Shown piece by piece: positions 11,830 to 62,849 of a stretch of DNA of 64,000 bases. Each line of letters opens with the position of its first letter. The first letter of the stretch is position 1. The stretch spans positions 1 through 64,000 of the forward strand of contig CAVPXM010000054.1 in NCBI GenBank assembly GCA_963709405.1. The letters run 5' to 3'. A program made the position numbers and the translations under genes. Source of the stretch: an uncultured Nitrososphaerales archaeon. GTDB lineage: Archaea > Thermoproteota > Nitrososphaeria > Nitrososphaerales > Nitrososphaeraceae. Below the pieces are notes generated by a model. It was not told the origin of the DNA. It was given only the letters and a program-made list of their open reading frames with translations, and did no database searches.

Positions 11830-12480
11830 GATACATAGGACAACCATCTTATTGCAGTAAGGATATCTAAAGCCATCATATTCGAGAAATATCTCGCATT
11901 CCACACAATGCTTACATCCCAAATCATAATAACTTGGTGATCCGTTGTTCCTTTTAGCTCTATATAGTTTACAAATATCTCTAGAAAACTTTTTCAATCG
12001 TTAGGTTTTCCTTTTTCTCATTATTTGTTTCGACAGTGACAAGATCGTACACAGATTTTAGAATTCTTGGTATAAACAGCCATCTTAACTCAGCTTAATT
12101 CAGGAGCAGTTGAAATTCCATCTAATTATATTCGTGGGATAAGGCTCATGATCTACTATGAATACTGACGATTCTGATGTGAACTGATTCAGTCTATCGT
12201 ACCATTTTAGTTTAATACCTTCTGAGACTAATTCGTCACTATTTACTATCTTAATTTTCATTTTGAAGGTATTGGAAATTATCTTTGCAATCTGTACAGC
12301 AGAACTGAGAAGGCTTGTTAGGATGACGTGAAATGTAATGTTGAACTTCTTTGGATTTTGCAGTTCTTGTAATTTCCTCTCTCCCATTTTCTGTAAGATC
12401 CGCATTTCTATTGCTGACTTTAGATCCATGGCTCAGATTAGCACTCGTTGCGCAATCACCGAGTCTTAATAAATATCTGT
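11830..12480 (-). pseudogene. Decayed inverted copy of sixA plus its small Zn-finger gene
   Basis: Nucleotide and protein similarity to 46003..46849 (YLLRLG, IAKIISNTFKMK, QFTSESS, HEPY; CVECEIFL), with frameshifts. Confidence 0.8.
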
Positions 12481-13150
12481 ACCTAAATGCAGGTGACTGT
12501 TGAGTAGCGAAGATATATTTATCGAACTGACCCGAGATGGCGGAGGAGTCACACTCCATGTTCCAAACGAAGTACAGATTGATGCAAAAATAAATATGAC
12601 CTCACCTAGTATCAACTTAATATATTATTATCAAATAAATTTGATATGCGCAAAGACTGAAAAATTCCTATATTTAACTATTGATAGAGTGCCTTAAGTG
12701 AACCTAGTATATTCGAATAAAGATGATGTAATTTGTTGCATAATTTGATGATAGATTATGCAAAAATATATTATCGATTTTGATTGAAAGCTGTTGTCAC
12801 CTTGGTGACTTTGCAATAGATATATGAGTATATAACTATATGACTATATATATGAATGAAAAACCGTTTGCAGTCATTTTTTATAGATAGAATCTATAAC
12901 TCCTGTTACCTTTTGGACAATAGTTGGTACTAATAAAAAATTAGGATCTGTCTTAGGAGCGGATGGTCTGCGTTAGAGACGATTATATACGAATTTTTTG
13001 ATTGTATACGTATCTTATGTCGAAAATAAAACCGCATCCGCATCGCAATGGTACGATTGAATCTTTAATCTCGGGTCATATATTCCAAGAACTTTCAGAT
13101 ACCGAGATATGTAGTTTGTAGCATTATTATTTTGGACATGTTAGATTCAG

Positions 13151-14063
13151 ATGATGCCACTCAACAAGTCATGGCATGATTACAATGAGTCATTAATTGA
13201 ACGTGGACGTATTCTTATGGATATTAGTTTTCTAGAATCTTCTAAGAGGGAGATTAAGAATATGAATAAAGGTAAGATTGGAGCTCCGTTTGAATATTCA
13301 CGTACTTATATCCAGTTTCTAGCATTTCTTAAGATTGGATTCAAGATCGCTTATAGAATTGTACAAGGAATCGTAAGAGGACTATCTGATTATATCAGGA
13401 TTGAAGAGATTCATTTTACACAGATCAGGAGAAGGATAATAAAGATTAAACCATCTGTAGGAAATCTAAATCTAGATAATGATGATAATGACAAGAAGCC
13501 GATAACACTGATAGTCGATCGATGCTTCTGGCCTTACTATAACAAAGAAAGGAGATTACATAGAACAAAAATGCATCAGGAAGAAAAAAGAGTTTATCAA
13601 GCTACATATTATTGCAGTCGATGCTAAATCGGACTAGATCATATCATTCAGAGTAACTAAAGGTAATGATGTTCATGATTCCAAAGAGTTTAGCTCTATG
13701 ATAAGAGAGATATCTAAGGAATATGATATTGACAAGGTTTATGCTGATAAGGCTCATGATAATAGGAGTTTTAACTTGTTAGACGACCTGAATATAGAAC
13801 CTGCTATAAATATTAGAAAAAATGCATCTACTATAAAAACAAAAGCATGTCCATTACGAGCAGAGGAGGTCGTCCTCATCAAGAAACTAGGATATGATGG
13901 ATGGAAACAGCTTAAGGATACAGGAAGAAGATGGATTGCAGAGATTGTATTTTCTTCACTAAAAAGAGTATTAAGTGAAGATCTACTTTCCAAGAAATTC
14001 AAAGCACAAGAAGTAGAAGCAGGACTAAAAGTAATGCTTTACAATAAATTCATTAGTCTATAG
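13151..14063 (+). mobile_element. IS5-family (IS903-like) transposase, disrupted
   Basis: SWHDYNESLIERG N-terminus, YADKAHD, RRWIAEIVFSSLK; frameshift near 13520 and an in-frame stop; element ends not resolved. Confidence 0.8.
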
Positions 14064-33847: not shown

Positions 33848-33922
33848 TGCGAAGTGCGGGATTTGAACCCGCGATCCCGAGCTTGGGAAGCTCGTACCTT
33901 AACCAGGCTGGGCTAACTTCGC
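33848..33922 (-). tRNA. tRNA-Gly(CCC), no intron
   Basis: Acceptor GCGAAGT/ACTTCGC; anticodon arm CGAGC-TTCCCAA-GCTCG; T arm GCGGG-TTCAAAT-CCCGC. Confidence 0.95.
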
Positions 33923-42865: not shown

Positions 42866-44057
42866 CTGCCGTTACTAAATATCTAGAAATAGTATATCAA
42901 TTTATTAACATCTATAAGCATGTGATCCATTGCTTGAGTACTGTCAATATCATAGTTAATTGTTGTACTTACACAGATAGGTTACATTTTTGATTACCTA
43001 CATGGGTTACACTTTGCTGCTTGTTCTTGTACGTACGGTGGATGTAATTAATCTTTAGAAACATCTCTGATGGAGTAAGGCCATTTATTCCTCCATGTTC
43101 TCTGGTTTCGTTATATGCTTTAACAAAGATATCATATCTTATTTTACCATCATCTGTGTTTGGTATATCCTCAACTGCTAAAAACTCATTCTTTACTATC
43201 TTGTTATATGCTTCTACCTTTCGTTGTAACTGTGGATAGGAATTGGGTATTTGCTTATCCTTTATCTGATTGTGTACAAGAAAACGTCTAAATATTTTGG
43301 ATGTAAACTGTTTTCGATTATCATGCATTATCTTTCTGGGCTTGCCATTAATGATTATCCATTCTTCCAGTACGTTAATAACATCTACTGACCTCTTTCT
43401 TTCAGACCACTTGCTAGCTACTTTTCTTGAACAATCGTCCAGACAGCTAATGATGTAATTCCTTTGACTAGAATTACTCAGATAGAAAGGTCCAAGGATA
43501 TCCAACTGCGCACCTGTACCATATCGTTAGGTCGTTTCATTGCAAACCTTTTGTATATTTTATTATTCCTTGTCTTACAGTTTAGAACATTTAGACCATG
43601 TCTCTTTAGTATCTTGTATAAAGTTCGAGTGCTTAATGAGATTCCAACAACCTTTCTTAATCTAAACTTGATCCTATTACATCCAAATCTCTTGGTTAAT
43701 CGTAGATCAAGTATTGTCTCCTGTATTTCAGATGTTATCTTCTTGTACTTGATATTATGAGGTCTTCTTGAGTTATCGGATAGACCTTCTGTTCCTTTAT
43801 GTTCATATCTCTTATTCCATTTGTAATACGTCTTCCTGGAGACACTATACTTTTTACAAATATTGCTTATGGTGTCACCAGTCCATTCTTTTTCGTGGAT
43901 TAGGTTGAATCTAGTTATGATTTCTATATGTATACACTTCCTGACAGCAGAAGTGTAACCCATGTCTGTAATCCATGTGAACTATTTTAAGGATTTCTGT
44001 TTTTCTTAATCTTAGTATAGTTCACCTCTGTTTACATACACATCCAGTAGTTTTTTC

Positions 44058-44209: not shown

Positions 44210-45268
44210 TCATCCTAACCTCTCATACATTCGTCTTTCTTTCATAATCCAATAAGCAACCTTCAGCAATTTGGCTGCAGCAGCTACAGCAGCTTTAGAA
44301 TTACCTTTCTTTTTTGCTATTCTATAATAGAACTGAGCTATGTTACTATTCTTTTCAGTGCGAATATGTGCGTGAACACATTCTAGCATTATCCATCGTA
44401 AGTATTTGCTACCTGCCTTTGTTATGCTGCTTCCATAATGTGTTACTCCACCAGAACTATGTGTTGATGGTACTAGACCTGCGTACGAACACAAGTGGTA
44501 CGAATCAGGAAACCTATTGATATCTCCAATTTCACTAACGATTAACAAAGCTGAATAATATCCAATACCTGGAATCGTCATCAGTAATTTAGCGATCTCA
44601 TCTTCTTTAGCAAGCAGTAGTATCCTCTTAGATACAGTATTAACTTCATCATTCAACGATTTAATAACACGAAGACAACCATTAATTCTATAATCATCAT
44701 ATCCTTCTAGTTTATCCATATTCCTTCTGGTAAATGTACTGGTACGATCGACATCTGAGGCCTCTATACCCTTCATAAGCGTAATGCTATGTACCTTATT
44801 CTTTAGTTTAGTTCTCATTCTTACAAGTGCGGATCTATGCCTAACAATGTCTCGTAGTTCCATTATTCTTTTGTTTGGAACATAGCATTCAGCTATGTAT
44901 CCTCCTCTCAGTAGATCAGCTAATTTAACCGCATCAAGTTTGTCGGTCTTTATTTTGGCCGAGGCAATAGCTCTTGTCTTGGTTGGATTGGATAATCGTA
45001 TATCTAGGTGTCTCTTTCTCAAGCATTCATAAATGTTGTACCACATACCAGACGATTCCATTACGACCTTAGCGTTATTGCCTGGACTGAGACTATCGAA
45101 GAATTCATTCACTTTTATCAGGTTATTGTCTACTCTAGAATTATCCAGTACCTTTCCTTTTTCGTCAAGAACGGCTACCTGTAGATAGTTCTTGTGAACA
45201 TCCATTCCCACAAACATACTCTTCTTACATACGCTACCGTCTGCTTTAGACTTACATAATTCGTTCAC
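44210..45268 (-). CDS. IS110-family DEDD recombinase, intact
   Basis: VGMDVH, VMES, KTDKLDA, IPGIG, SYAGLVP...SSGG. Confidence 0.95.
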   Translation of the reverse strand: MNELCKSKADGSVCKKSMFVGMDVHKNYLQVAVLDEKGKVLDNSRVDNNLIKVNEFFDSLSPGNNAKVVMESSGMWYNIYECLRKRHLDIRLSNPTKTRAIASAKIKTDKLDAVKLADLLRGGYIAECYVPNKRIMELRDIVRHRSALVRMRTKLKNKVHSITLMKGIEASDVDRTSTFTRRNMDKLEGYDDYRINGCLRVIKSLNDEVNTVSKRILLLAKEDEIAKLLMTIPGIGYYSALLIVSEIGDINRFPDSYHLCSYAGLVPSTHSSGGVTHYGSSITKAGSKYLRWIMLECVHAHIRTEKNSNIAQFYYRIAKKKGNSKAAVAAAAKLLKVAYWIMKERRMYERLG

Positions 45269-45493
45269 ATATAGTTAGCTATAATGTCACCTATGTTAGG
45301 AAGTACAACAGCTAACCAAACCAATTTATCGTGTGCTATCCACAAGTACTATCATTGTATTTAGATTTCAATCTAAATCTAATAACAGCTTGCCACGACA
45401 AATAACTCGATACTAATTAACGTATTCTATATATTCTATATAGTAGTATATAGTGCTATTAGATATATATAGGTAGTTTGTTGATACTTAGAT

Positions 45494-59098: not shown

Positions 59099-59322
59099 TT
59101 ATTGCAAAAAATGCCAAATAATGGCATATAAATTAATTGTATAGAGTCTATGTGATTCAATACTGCAGATAGTGATCTATATACCATCACATCGTTAACC
59201 AGTAACATTCAATTTCCGAAAAAGAAGTCTAATGATTCTTCTCATTATTGAACGGCTAAACCAATCACTTTTCCCAGTCGCAAACTAAGCACGTTTCCAT
59301 TGGCAATAGAGGTATAATTACT

Positions 59323-60360
59323 TGTTGTACTTACACAGATAGGTTACATTTTTGATTACCTACATGGGTTACACTTTGCTGCTTGTTATTGTACATACTG
59401 TGGATGTAATTAATTCTTTGTAGAAACATCTCTGATGGAGTAAGACCATTAATCCCTCCGTGTTCTCTAGTTTCGTTGTAGGCTTTTACAAAGATATCAT
59501 ATCTTAGTTTTCCATCATTTATGTTTGGTATATCTTCTATTGCTAGGAACTCATTCTTCACTATCTTGTTATATGCTTCCACTTTACCCTGAAGCTGCGG
59601 ATAGCGATTTGGTATTCGTTTATCCTTTATCTGATTGTGTACAAGGAAATGTCTGAATATGTTAGATGTAAACTGCTTTCCACTATCATGCATTACTCTA
59701 TCAGGTTTGCCGTTGATCACTATCCAATCCTCTAATACATTAAGAACATCTACTGACCTCTTCCTTTCAGACCATCTGCTAGCTACTTTTCTTGAACAGT
59801 CGTCTAGGCAGCTAATGATGTAATTCCTTTGACTAGAATTACTCAGATAGAAAGGGCCAAGGATATCCATCTGTACCATCTCATTTGGATGCTTCATGAC
59901 AAACCGTTTGTAAGTTCTTGTTTTGGCCTTACACTTGAGGATATTAAGCCCATGTCTCTTTAGTATCTTGTATATGGTTCTGGTGCTTAATGAGATTCCA
60001 ATAACCTTTCTCAATCTAAACTTGATCCTGCTGTACATCCAAACCTTTTGGTTAATCGTAGATCAAGTATTGTCTCCTGTATTTCAGATGTTATCTTCTT
60101 GTACTTGATATTATGAGGTCTTCTTGAGTTATCGGATAGACCTTCTATCCCTTTCTGTTTGTATCTGTTATTCCACTTGTAGTAAGTCTTTCTGGATACA
60201 CCGTATCTTTTACAAATATTAGATACTGTATCACCAGTCCATTCTTTCTCATGTGTTAGATTAAACCTTGTATTGATTTCTATATGGATTCACTTCCTGA
60301 CAGCAGAAGTGTAACCCATCTGTGTAAGCTATAATGTCACCTATGTTAGGAAGTACAACA
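59323..60360 (-). mobile_element. IS481-family element, full length, transposase frameshifted
   Basis: TGTTGTACTT...AAGTACAACA ends; 6-bp TSD ATTACT at 59317-59322 and 60361-60366. Confidence 0.92.
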
Positions 60361-60978
60361 ATTACTACATAAATAAATTCGAACGCTTTATAGTTCTTCG
60401 TTACATAGGAAAAAGATACGTGCGTGGTGGCACGGATGGTGAATTACCGATTCTCCAGTGGTAGGGCTCCCTCGTCCTGGTACTGGAATCTGTGTATAAA
60501 TCTTCCAGAAAAAAGTTAAGCTCTCTACGTTCACGATCTTCTTTAAAAACAGAATCTCATTTTCCCATCTACAGATGCTTCTAAATGACGTACATTCAAA
60601 GATTTGACGGGCTAGGTTTCAAAACTGGAATGAAATTATGTGAATGGGCTATTCATTTAACGATTTGTAATTGCTTGTCATGATAACCTATCCACAAACT
60701 AGGCATGTGTCCACACACTCCCACCAACCATAAAATTGGCTTTTGGACATACTTGTCAATCAGCGACAAATACTGCTTTGTTGCATAATTCAGAAAGATC
60801 GTCATCTTGCAATGCTTTTAGTACTTCTCAGGAATAGGCCAAATGCGGATTACTCCTTTTTAGCTGAATGTTTCAAAGTTAGTTGACTAATATCGGATTC
60901 GTGCATCTATGTAAAAGTCCCTCCATGGCTAGCATATCCTACTATTATCTAATGCTGCCTAGACCAGTCTTTATTATC

Positions 60979-62042
60979 TTAGTGTTGGATCCTCTTAAGT
61001 TTTGTTTCGTATAGGCCAATCTTTCTTTCATTGTATAGTTTCTTGTATGTTAGCATATGCCACATTATAGTGCATATCTTATTTGCAACATGTGTTATTG
61101 CAATGTGACGCCCATGTCTTTTGGCCAGCCTTAGATAGAATTTCCTTAATCTACTGTCAGTTCTAGATGCAGTATTGGCTGCTTCAATTAATATCCATCT
61201 TACCTTTTTATTACCATCTTTCATCCTTCCCATATACAATGGGTTTCCAGATTGATGTACTGATGGACATAATCCAGCCCATGATACAAGTTTTTGAGGT
61301 GAACTAAATCTGTTAATATCGCCAATTTCAGATGATATCATCATTGCAGAGAAATAATTTATTCCTGTCATACTCATCAATATTTTAACTGATTCATTAT
61401 TTGATGCGTCTATCCTTTCTTTGATTCAATATTTTTGATCTCTGTAGTAAGAAATTCAATCTGCTCAATGTACTCATGCAGCAAAATCTGGTCATTGCCA
61501 GTTACTTTTAGATCCCTTAGCCATTGTAATCCCTTTATTCCAAATATCTTGGAATAATTAAAGTTCATATCATCATATTTATCAAGTAATGAATGTGTTC
61601 TATTAATTACTCTGGTTCTATCCTGTACCAAATTTGTTCTTAGCCTGAGTAATGACCTATCTCCTCTAGTCTCTCTGTCTGCAATGTAACATTCAGCTAC
61701 AACAAGATCTGATCTAAGTAGATGTGCAAGTGTTCTAGCATCAAGTTTATCGGTCTTTATTATTCTTGCCTCAGCAATGGCCTTAGTTTTCAAAGGATTA
61801 GCCAGTTTAACATCAATATTATGTTTCTCAAATGCCTGGTATGTCTTTAGCCAAAGGTTACCTGTAGATTCACAGACTGCTTTAGACATACCATCACCAT
61901 GCTTCCTCTTAATGGATGAAGCAAATGATTCAGCTTGTTCCAACGTATTATTGTAATTGGTTTCTTTGATTATGGAACCATTCGAATCCATTATACAAAC
62001 TACACAATTCCGTTTTCCAATATCTACTCCTATATAGTTCAG
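60979..62042 (-). pseudogene. IS110 DEDD recombinase, frameshifted near 61415
   Basis: YIGVDIG, VCES, KTDKLDA; SWAGLCP...QSG in the second frame. Confidence 0.9.
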
Positions 62043-62109
62043 TGATCCTTTCTTTTTCCTATGTGGTATCCTCTTTTCTCACCTCCTTCTCTTTTTTTCA
62101 GTATGGATA

Positions 62110-62225
62110 GCTGGACTAAGCTGCATACATCTATCAGAGCTCGAGGCTCACTTTGACAGGAGCTTGTAGGTACGCCCCATTCAACAGACTAGACCTATGT
62201 GGTCATGCACGATGAGGGGTCAGCT
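62110..62225 (-). ncRNA. Putative bridge RNA of the second IS110
   Basis: Loop CCCC..UCGUGCAU-GACC/GGUC-..UGUUGAAU-GGGG matches both flanks; second loop AUAGAU matches the element end. Confidence 0.75.
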
Positions 62226-62849
62226 AACCATATTGATTATAGAGGGCGACTTTTACATGTCTTTCAACAAAGCAACAAATACGACAGATTAAAATGGCTA
62301 TGGTTGGAATATTTGACGTCTCCTTAATTATAGATGTAAATTTCATATTTTTGTATCAGATTTACGTGTTCTAAACACAAACTTCAATCCCCAGAAGAAT
62401 TTGGATCGCAGAGTTGGAATCATACCTAGCGTGCCGCGATTGCTGCGGGCCGACACATCATATCTGATATTCACCACTAGCTATATGATGACATTGTTTA
62501 AGTTGGACTTACTGTTGCGTAACGGATAGACAATGAGAAATCAAAATTTAGAAAGATCTTTAAGTTTGGGTAATTCAATGACGAAGTTAATCTACCATCA
62601 CCTATCTGCTTGTCATCACAAAGAATTTTTGGACATTTCTTAAAATTATCTCAGAAATTACTATATTATTCGTATATGCACTTGATCTTCAGCTTTTAAT
62701 AATGCTAAGTCCGTAGTTATTGCATCTTCTATATCATTAATTGATCCATGTATAATAAATTTATAGGCCTTTGCACTTTTTGTGTTAGATGTGTATCACT
62801 ACGATCCGTATAGAAAATCCGAATCTCCCTTGAGGCCCGGTGGCATAAG

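Follow-up and report, generated by a model that had tools for sequence, protein, structure and literature searches.

Near the right end of a 64,000-nucleotide stretch of DNA from an uncultured Nitrososphaerales archaeon of the ammonia-oxidising type (positions 1 to 64,000 of the forward strand of contig CAVPXM010000054.1, assembly GCA_963709405.1; the whole stretch is hereafter called the window) lies an insertion sequence (IS) with a broken recombinase gene. The question raised by this locus is whether the element specifies its own insertion site through an RNA. A previous inspection of the letters alone, here called the sequence-only reading, had proposed an IS110-superfamily element with a noncoding RNA located 5' of the recombinase, and this assignment is supported by the present analysis. 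With a probability of roughly 0.85, the element is a decayed, bridge/seek-RNA-guided IS on the minus strand that targets the inverted-repeat tips of IS5-like elements and of their miniature inverted-repeat transposable elements (MITEs). The coordinates of all features are collected in Table 1. The window's genome (G000) is represented by 100 contigs and is 91% complete; C-labels denote its contigs and L-labels denote loci.

We examined the boundaries of the element by comparing it with other copies and with uninterrupted insertion sites. There are 22 matches to it in G000, of which those on C18 and C44 are long and the others are fragments. The sequence 60899-62274 is common to all of these copies and extends about 6-8 nt beyond each end assumed in the sequence-only reading. 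The 106 nt to the left of 60905 belong to another repeat, and nine of the 11 other copies of that repeat continue from TCGTGCA directly into ACAAAGCA (...GGATTCGTGCA followed by ACAAAGCA) and diverge only thereafter; one of the remaining copies reads ATAAAGCA and one is truncated. The uninterrupted 15-mer TCGTGCAACAAAGCA occurs 10 times in the genome, and contigs from an independent sequencing run end the interrupted repeat, a MITE, identically. The empty site thus reads TCGTG-CA-ACAAAGCA, to be compared with TCGTG-CA-TCTATG and TCTTT-CA-ACAAAGCA at the two junctions. The dinucleotide CA is present once in the empty site and once at each junction with no further duplication, as is typical of the superfamily, and both guides of the target loop described below terminate in it (CA and UG). 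Since the uninterrupted sites could be compared with both junctions, the core is CA on the plus strand (TG on the minus strand), and T60906 as well as TTCA at 62263-62266 belong to the element rather than to its flanks.

These results revise part of the sequence-only reading. It had correctly located tcgtgcat at 60899-60906 and ttcaaca at 62263-62269, and it had named the comparison with empty sites as a check. The boundaries proved to be different from those it proposed, its core AT gives way to CA/TG, and the puzzling TT that it saw at the right junction vanishes. The empty site that it predicted, TCGTGC[AT]TTCAACA, has zero occurrences in the genome. Its sub-terminal inverted repeats, in contrast, were read at both ends as an 11-nt repeat; such a sub-terminal inverted repeat (sTIR) is 12-15 nt long and exact in 11 of 12 close relatives scanned. 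About 215 nt of noncoding sequence precede the recombinase and 73 nt follow it. At two other places in the genome, C21:214022-214066 and C44:8071-8100, all that is left is the final 30-45 nt of the RNA-side end (sTIR, AAAGAC and core), which is still joined to the target half ACAGAGCA, and the other side of the C21 sequence resembles an IS5-type tip. Both appear to be remnants of the element after internal deletion.

The interrupted repeat itself is a 141-bp MITE with about 12 copies in the genome, which are 93-100% identical and all share the same two boundaries. Both of its tips read TGCTTTGTTGCA(T/C)(A/G)A. We counted 60 occurrences of the pattern TGCTYTGTTGCAYRA in the genome; since the 5 nt beyond the pattern differ, each of them marks the border of a repeat family. 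One family with such tips is a 1.0-kb element (C48:40304-41304) whose open reading frame (ORF) carries DDE_Tnp_1_5 and DDE_Tnp_1, a domain pair that we take to mark it as IS5-like. The copies of the IS110-type element on C18 and C79 occupy a variant tip, TGCTCTGT-TG-CATGATCCATTAGG, and in a metatranscriptome contig a further copy sits in an IS5-like tip (place 60902). Taken together, the MITE, the variant tip and the metatranscriptome site place the insertion point 8-10 nt into terminal inverted repeats that belong to other transposable elements. In nature, the element targets the repeat tip (TGCTYTGT-TG-CAYGA) of IS5-like elements and of their MITEs. The target sequence predicted to match the RNA is TGCTYTGTTGCAYGA. 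Nested insertions are also seen at C79:11484-13371 (L103), where an IS5-like element of 1 kb contains the 141-bp MITE (11981-12121) and, in its right tip, a truncated copy of the IS110-type element (12629-13371).

To characterize the noncoding region, a covariance model (R1) was built from an alignment of five own-genome copies and 12 relatives, a step that the sequence-only reading had suggested. The foldable region common to the copies lies between the left-end (LE) repeat and the start codon. R1 contains five helices: a closing stem, outer (CCCC/GGGG) and inner (GACC/GGUC) stems of the target loop, and outer (AGCUG/CAGCU) and inner (GAGC/GCUC) stems of the donor loop. The minus-strand letters that had been reported for 62219-62175, CCCC-UCA-UCGUGCAU-GACC-ACAUA-GGUC-UAGUC-UGUUGAAU-GGGG, are correct and constitute the first of these loops. 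With filters off, R1 matched the window only at 62090-62244 on the minus strand (152 bits), the next best match having an E value of 1.3, and it matched seven places in the genome. All 56 selected loci (51 from relatives, five from G000) matched at E ≤ 0.01, each upstream of the recombinase and on its strand; when 78 loci of relatives were searched at E ≤ 1, 53 of the 54 rows lay just upstream of the recombinase on the same strand. Among relatives the hosts belong to Nitrososphaeria and Bathyarchaeia. At E ≤ 1e-5, 12 of 151 sampled genomes of the class contained a match, a tally that includes G000 and one unpublished genome, G132, and becomes 11 of 150 without the latter.

The predicted pairing is preserved through sequence change. 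In the 56-sequence alignment (53 distinct rows), which was fitted to R1 and so favours the structure, 95.6% of cells are paired compared with 78.8% in shuffles. Compensatory change was found at 16 of the 23 pairs, with 203 cells changed on both sides, a level reached by none of 500 shuffles, and registers slid along the alignment pair only 34-55%. All six pairs of the closing stem have changed on both sides among the 53 distinct sequences, as have all four of the donor inner stem. The columns of the donor outer stem are near-invariant and hence uninformative, so that covariation cannot choose between alternative pairings there; the RNAalifold alternative (CUGU with GCAG) was not adopted, as AGCUG/CAGCU mirrors the target loop. 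The minimum free energy fold of the window sequence (-41.3 kcal/mol) includes the closing stem and the target loop. A search against Rfam returned nothing relevant at E ≤ 10 over 60850-62320; the sole match of the window at gathering score is a tRNA gene at 33848-33922 (-).

The flanks were next compared with the loops. The 5' target guide of the window copy, UCGUGCA, matches its own flank TCGTGCA at seven of seven positions, and the changed guide of the C18 copy, UCAUGCA, likewise matches its own changed flank, TCATGCA (7/7). The 3' guides of C18, C44, C60 and C61 each match their own flanks at 7/7, and that of C20, a 78%-identical copy, at 5/7 (UAUGUUG and TCAATTG). Within the genome, two polymorphic guide positions track two polymorphic target positions. 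The two flank matches that had been proposed from the letters are real in substance and required trimming at the junctions. For tcgtgcAT the guide UCGUGCA stands and the final T (60906) is a base of the element. The match of UGUUGAA with ttcaaca also stands, and this word straddles the junction, with TTCA in the element and ACA in the target; it can be parsed as three target nt, two core nt and two element nt, that is, guide plus handshake-like AA.

At the family level, junctions were predicted from the RNA alone without assuming boundaries, and the guides of other loci served as controls. The left junction word was the 3' guide plus 2 nt (9-mer) and the right one was the donor 3' guide plus the reverse complement of the target 5' guide (12-mer). 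L070 and L071 were dropped from the 56 rows for lack of a 7-nt guide in the alignment, and more were dropped for lack of flanks. The left word was found exactly at 28 of 53 loci and with at most one mismatch at 45, compared with 1/2356 and 104/2356 (4.4%) for non-cognate combinations. For the right word the counts were 17 and 29 of 50 loci, compared with 1/2250 and 19/2250 (0.8%). The match between loops and flanks exceeds chance. Since the targets of the subgroups differ widely (CCAAATG, TAGTTTG, ACTTCTG, and a GTT microsatellite in L039), this signal does not merely reflect one inherited target. In L038, the handshake-like dinucleotide is AG and the element begins AGGAC. Eight left junctions were off by at least two letters. 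Some of the missed elements reach further 3' than was searched (L043, L046 and the OZ241884 copies L062, L064 and L065), and some sit in sites mismatched to their guides (L031, L036, L077). L039, in a Nitrosopumilus metagenome-assembled genome (MAG; OZ242041.1, around 1033-1073 and the 3' junction), is flanked by runs of (GTT)n and (TGTGGTTG)n, and its target guides GUUGUUG and CCACACA both fit these simple repeats.

The second loop was compared with the ends of the element. The sequence-only reading had noted AUAGAU there, which is indeed part of the donor 3' guide AUAGAUG, and had described CCUGUC as only partly matching the other end, which is also right. Across the family, the donor 3' guides AUAGAUG, AUAGGUG, ACAGGUG and AUGGAUG accompany the element ends ATAGATG, ATAGGTG, ACAGGTG and ATGGATG. 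The donor 5' strand, placed in register with the 5-6-nt spacer between core and sTIR, has five or six of six positions paired (wobble allowed) in 18 of 25 distinct combinations. The window subgroup has a spacer with one additional base (AAAGAC), and pairing there is confined to UGUC:GACA. A handshake guide following the donor 3' guide was also considered and rejected, since the bases that come next (UA here; UU, AU and others elsewhere) do not change with the first bases of the target. Sequence and covariation together point to an RNA encoded by the element in which one loop matches the target and the other the donor, in agreement with the two internal loops proposed at the outset.

We considered the possibility that the target loop works alone as a short seekRNA, that the protein reads the sTIRs, and that the apparent donor loop is a structural or regulatory part of a leader. 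The passages of PMC11187229 on RNA size describe predominant RNAs of 82-96 nt with target matches only for IS1111 members, the sTIR of 11-15 nt is strongly conserved here, and the donor 5' strand of the window subgroup pairs poorly with its own end. Such an arrangement would leave unexplained that the donor 3' guide changes together with the element end throughout the family, that most subgroups show covariation between the donor 5' strand and the spacer (AAAGC:GCUUU, AACAC:GUGUU, AATAC:GUAUU), and that compensatory change extends to every pair of the donor inner stem. We therefore regard it as unlikely. It is far less probable still that the matches between loops and flanks are a by-product of wrong boundaries, the supposed flanks being element sequence and their internal copies being protein-binding repeats or DNA structures with no guide RNA. 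The 6-8 nt that all own-genome copies share past the assumed ends do resemble element sequence at first sight; however, the uninterrupted sites prove these bases to be target, the guides of distant relatives (CCAAAUG, UAGUUUG, ACUUCUG) follow very different flanks, and the stems stay paired through G-U pairs and compensatory changes on the recombinase strand only. That the structure is a cis-acting leader, for instance for translational control of the recombinase, with incidental complementarity to the junctions, is hardly credible: the RNA does lie directly upstream of the start codon with the purine-rich GGAGGUGA between RNA and gene, but a leader would not account for the covariation of two loop segments with DNA that lies beyond the element.

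The gene downstream of the RNA encodes the domain pair of the IS110 superfamily, PF01548 followed by PF02371, split over two frames in the window copy. The frameshift that had been noticed is confirmed: compared with C44, the window copy lacks one nucleotide near 61417, and the extra base at 61417 is present in contigs of two sequencing runs. The ATG of the family, used in C18, C20, C80 and C6, reads ATAGG in the window copy. The C44 copy has one open frame of 364 codons that matches NCBIfam NF033542 (IS110 family RNA-guided transposase) with 225.8 bits against a cut-off of 140, and it is similar to the structure chains of IS621 (E 6.5e-8) and ISCro4 (E 2.9e-5). The blocks YIGxD, E(S/A)TG, KTDxxDA and (Q/E)SG align with IS621 and probably hold the active-site residues named for it in PMC11208158; the window ORFs carry VDIGK, CESTG, KTDKLDA and HQSGN.

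Several observations weigh against an RNA-guided element with two guide loops. The donor 5' strand of the window subgroup pairs with its end over only 4 nt (GACA), with three A-A oppositions adjoining the core, and the control for this strand with sliding registers is weak, at least five of six positions being paired in 19/25 cognate and 231/528 non-cognate combinations. The 3' guide of the window copy has one mismatch to its own target (UCUGUUG and TTTGTTG, 6/7), 21 of the 50 right junctions differ from prediction by 2-5 letters, and the relatives cannot be counted as independent samples. Folded by itself, the window sequence does only modestly better than shuffles (z = -1.99; 7/200 fold as well). 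The window copy cannot act alone because of its frameshift and the lack of an ATG at the family start; C18 has several frameshifts, the open frame of C44 lacks an ATG and is truncated at its 3' end, and no intact copy was seen among the own-genome copies in the 91%-complete assembly. No promoter was identified for the predicted RNA. The matches in RNA libraries, 90-99% alike, are assembled contigs of oligo-dT/cDNA metatranscriptomes, which cannot show RNA ends and may contain DNA.

TATAAT at 62241-62236 was rejected as a promoter, being too close to the closing stem for transcription to start before it; the usual spacing between an archaeal promoter and the start site exceeds this distance. 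In three RNA-library runs, 7-19% of the sampled words were recovered, which speaks neither for nor against a small RNA. Parts of the window without cover in sequencing runs carry no meaning, and no claim is made about habitat.

The mechanism that we propose for this probable RNA-guided element is modelled on IS621 and on the seekRNA systems of IS1111. The element would excise as a circle joining ...ATAGA-TG-AAAGAC.... An RNA of about 131 nt would be transcribed upstream of the recombinase gene from the same strand and fold into a closing stem bearing two stem/internal-loop/stem modules. In the target module, the 5' guide UC(G/A)UGCA would pair with the recombinase-sense strand of the core and right target (TG-CACGA), and the 3' guide U(C/U)UGUUG with the other strand of the left target and core, the next AA matching the first element bases. 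In the donor module, the 3' guide AUAGAUG would match the 3' end of the element plus core and the 5' strand would pair with the bases just outside the sTIR of the other end. The recombinase, presumably once bound to this RNA, would exchange strands at the TG/CA core through its DEDD and serine residues, with no target duplication beyond the core.

The recombinase family comprises 1047 proteins at E ≤ 1e-3 among 3000 candidates, and 473 stretches were confirmed in genome contigs of Nitrososphaerales, Nitrosopumilaceae and Bathyarchaeia MAGs. The recombinase of one natural intact relative, the 358-aa protein P0001, is 92% identical. The nearest bacterial relatives, found on plasmids, show neither an R1 match nor a convincing sTIR and do not help to classify the clade. 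Relatives at 43-66% amino acid identity also occur on MAG contigs labelled Gemmatimonadales, Kaiserbacteria and Poribacteria (L034, L052 and L080), of which L034 and L080 also carry the RNA; these may be mis-binned archaeal contigs or cases of transfer.

The window holds other mobile elements. As the sequence-only reading had stated, there is a further IS110-family gene, an unrelated one about 17 kb away at 44210-45268 (-); it is an ORF of 352 amino acids with a PF01548 match at 44783-45211, and R1 does not match it. An IS of about 1.05 kb with an rve/rve_3 integrase-type ORF (59334-60038, -) occupies 59314-60364, and it has more than 50 full or partial copies, 75-91% identical, spread over the genome's contigs. 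The gene at 44210-45268 lies within a copy of this rve-type IS: its flanks, 43700-43971 and 45274-45315, match segments of that IS that lie next to each other (corresponding to 60056-60327 and 60324-60360). For this reason, both IS110-family elements of the window are considered to lie inside other mobile elements.

Table 1 Features of the probable RNA-guided insertion sequence and its target in the window.
Feature	Position	Strand	Description
Insertion sequence (IS110 superfamily)	60906..62266	-	1361 bp with one core copy; from empty-site comparison; C18 and C44 copies 95% identical over the span
Core dinucleotide, recombinase-3' junction copy	60904..60905	CA (+) / TG (-)	2-nt overlap of element end with empty site
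Core dinucleotide, RNA-side junction copy	62265..62266	CA (+) / TG (-)	2-nt overlap of element end with empty site
Sub-terminal inverted repeat, recombinase-3' end	60909..60919	+	ATGTAAAAGTC; 3 nt from core; 11 nt exact
Sub-terminal inverted repeat, RNA-side end	62248..62258	-	6 nt (AAAGAC) from core
Predicted bridge/seek RNA core	62102..62232	-	About 131 nt; closing stem 62232-62221 with 62113-62102 encloses both loops
Predicted target-binding loop	62175..62219	-	Outer stem CCCC/GGGG, inner stem GACC/GGUC
Predicted target 5' guide	62212-62206	-	UCGUGCA; complementary to recombinase-sense TG-CACGA (core + right target)
Predicted target 3' guide	62188-62182	-	UCUGUUG; corresponds to left target + core (T[T/C]TGT-TG)
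Handshake-like dinucleotide	62181-62180	-	AA; equals first two element bases
Predicted donor-binding loop	62119..62164	-	Outer stem AGCU(C)/CAGCU, inner stem GAGC/GCUC
Predicted donor 5' strand	62159-62150	-	CUGUCAAAGU; pairs only with GACA of other end
Predicted donor 3' guide	62134-62128	-	AUAGAUG; equals element 3' end ATAGA + core TG
Recombinase, N-terminal part	61410..62063	-	DEDD/RuvC-like domain; PF01548, E 1.7e-28
Recombinase, C-terminal part	60979..61380	-	Other frame; Transposase_20, GLCPSVHQSG; PF02371, E 6.5e-23
MITE, left 132 bp of 141 bp	60774..60905	+	Left tip TGCTTTGTTGCATAATTC; right tip interrupted by the IS after ...GGATTCGTGCA
MITE, right end	62267..62274	+	ACAAAGCA, last 8 bp of right terminal inverted repeat; left-target half in recombinase-sense orientation

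Systems of this kind are known, but the layout of this one is slightly unusual and does not correspond to either textbook subgroup. The description of it as an independent archaeal bridge system was overstated: a bridge-type RNA is supported, and the element is a single decayed copy from an archaeal clade that is widespread. The combination of a 5' RNA with sub-terminal repeats is present as had been claimed, and was already noted as a rare exception in PMC11187229, whose passages on such exceptions list an upstream noncoding region for the IS1111-type ISMtsp17 and noncoding regions on both sides for ISHvo10 and ISAcp5, the RNAs themselves not being analysed there. We found no description of the clade or of RNAs from upstream noncoding regions of IS1111-type elements in the literature searched, and the supplements of PMC11187229, PMC11208160 and bioRxiv 10.64898/2026.10.21.760802 may list the clade. 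Covariance-model mining beside genes with PF01548 and PF02371 has been described for bacteria and archaea in the text on Fig. 6 of Durrant 2024 and in passages of 10.64898/2026.10.21.760802, the latter reporting 181,180 clustered IS110-adjacent intergenic sequences; both likewise use covariation of guides and flanks as evidence. The main-text passages of these catalogues name neither this archaeal clade nor its layout, and their supplementary tables may list the clade. The known mechanism is thus unchanged and large catalogues of bridge RNAs already exist; what was a resemblance read by hand has now been tested, and exact boundaries, a core, a target and an RNA model have been assigned to it. 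It may be of use for understanding how the IS110 and IS1111 layouts relate, for annotating archaeal genomes, as the RNA has no Rfam family, and as a source of compact recombinases from mesophilic archaea.

With the IS1111 seekRNA elements (ISEc11, ISPa11, ISKpn4 and IS4321/IS5075), as presented in passages of PMC11187229, the element shares an sTIR within the range of 7-17 bp, the absence of target duplication, and an RNA in which the segment matching the top strand stands 5' of that matching the bottom strand, an order reversed in ISEc21 of the IS110 group. Targeting the terminal inverted repeat of another mobile element is likewise common to it and IS4321/IS5075, going by the title of a reference in PMC11208160. 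The IS5075 transposase is 25% identical to this recombinase over residues 139-347 (73 bits, E 2e-11), compared with 35 bits for IS621 from phmmer, the two scores having come from different programs. GL-P----SG was rejected as a marker of the IS1111 group, because IS621 shows GLTPRRYESG in the alignment. Where IS1111 members, as portrayed in these sources, carry their RNA downstream of the recombinase, it lies upstream here, in the window as well as in relatives, and the host is an archaeon.

With IS621 and the IS110 group, as described in the passages of PMC11208160 and PMC11208158 on guide architecture, it shares an RNA that lies upstream of, and on the same strand as, the recombinase gene, a recombinase with DEDD and serine residues, and two pseudo-symmetric stem/internal-loop/stem modules for target and donor. 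The 5' guide of an IS621 loop is identical to left flank plus core, the 3' guide is complementary to core plus right flank, and a 2-nt handshake guide for the other DNA follows; here too the 2-nt core forms part of both guides of a loop and a 2-nt handshake-like extension follows the 3' guide. By these accounts the group has no sTIR or one of 2-3 bp (2-3 nt in IS621), whereas 11 nt are found here; the core of IS621 is CT, whereas it is TG here; and the closing stem encloses both loops, unlike in IS621. The bottom-strand guide comes first in IS621, and the order is reversed here relative to the recombinase-sense strand, UCGUGCA being complementary to recombinase-sense TGCACGA. We tentatively suggest that the Nitrososphaeria/Bathyarchaeia clade might represent a distinct third layout of bridge RNAs, with the polarity of IS1111, a recombination site on the other side of the RNA gene and a habit of parasitising the tips of IS5-like elements and MITEs, either as an intermediate or as an independent repeat of the RNA 'translocation' that passages of Durrant et al. 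postulate between IS110 and IS1111. Such a layout, if true, would be a circular permutation of IS1111 on the circle (recombinase gene - site - RNA, not recombinase gene - RNA - site). Read on the opposite strand, the guide geometry found here is exactly that given for IS621 in these passages, handshake included.

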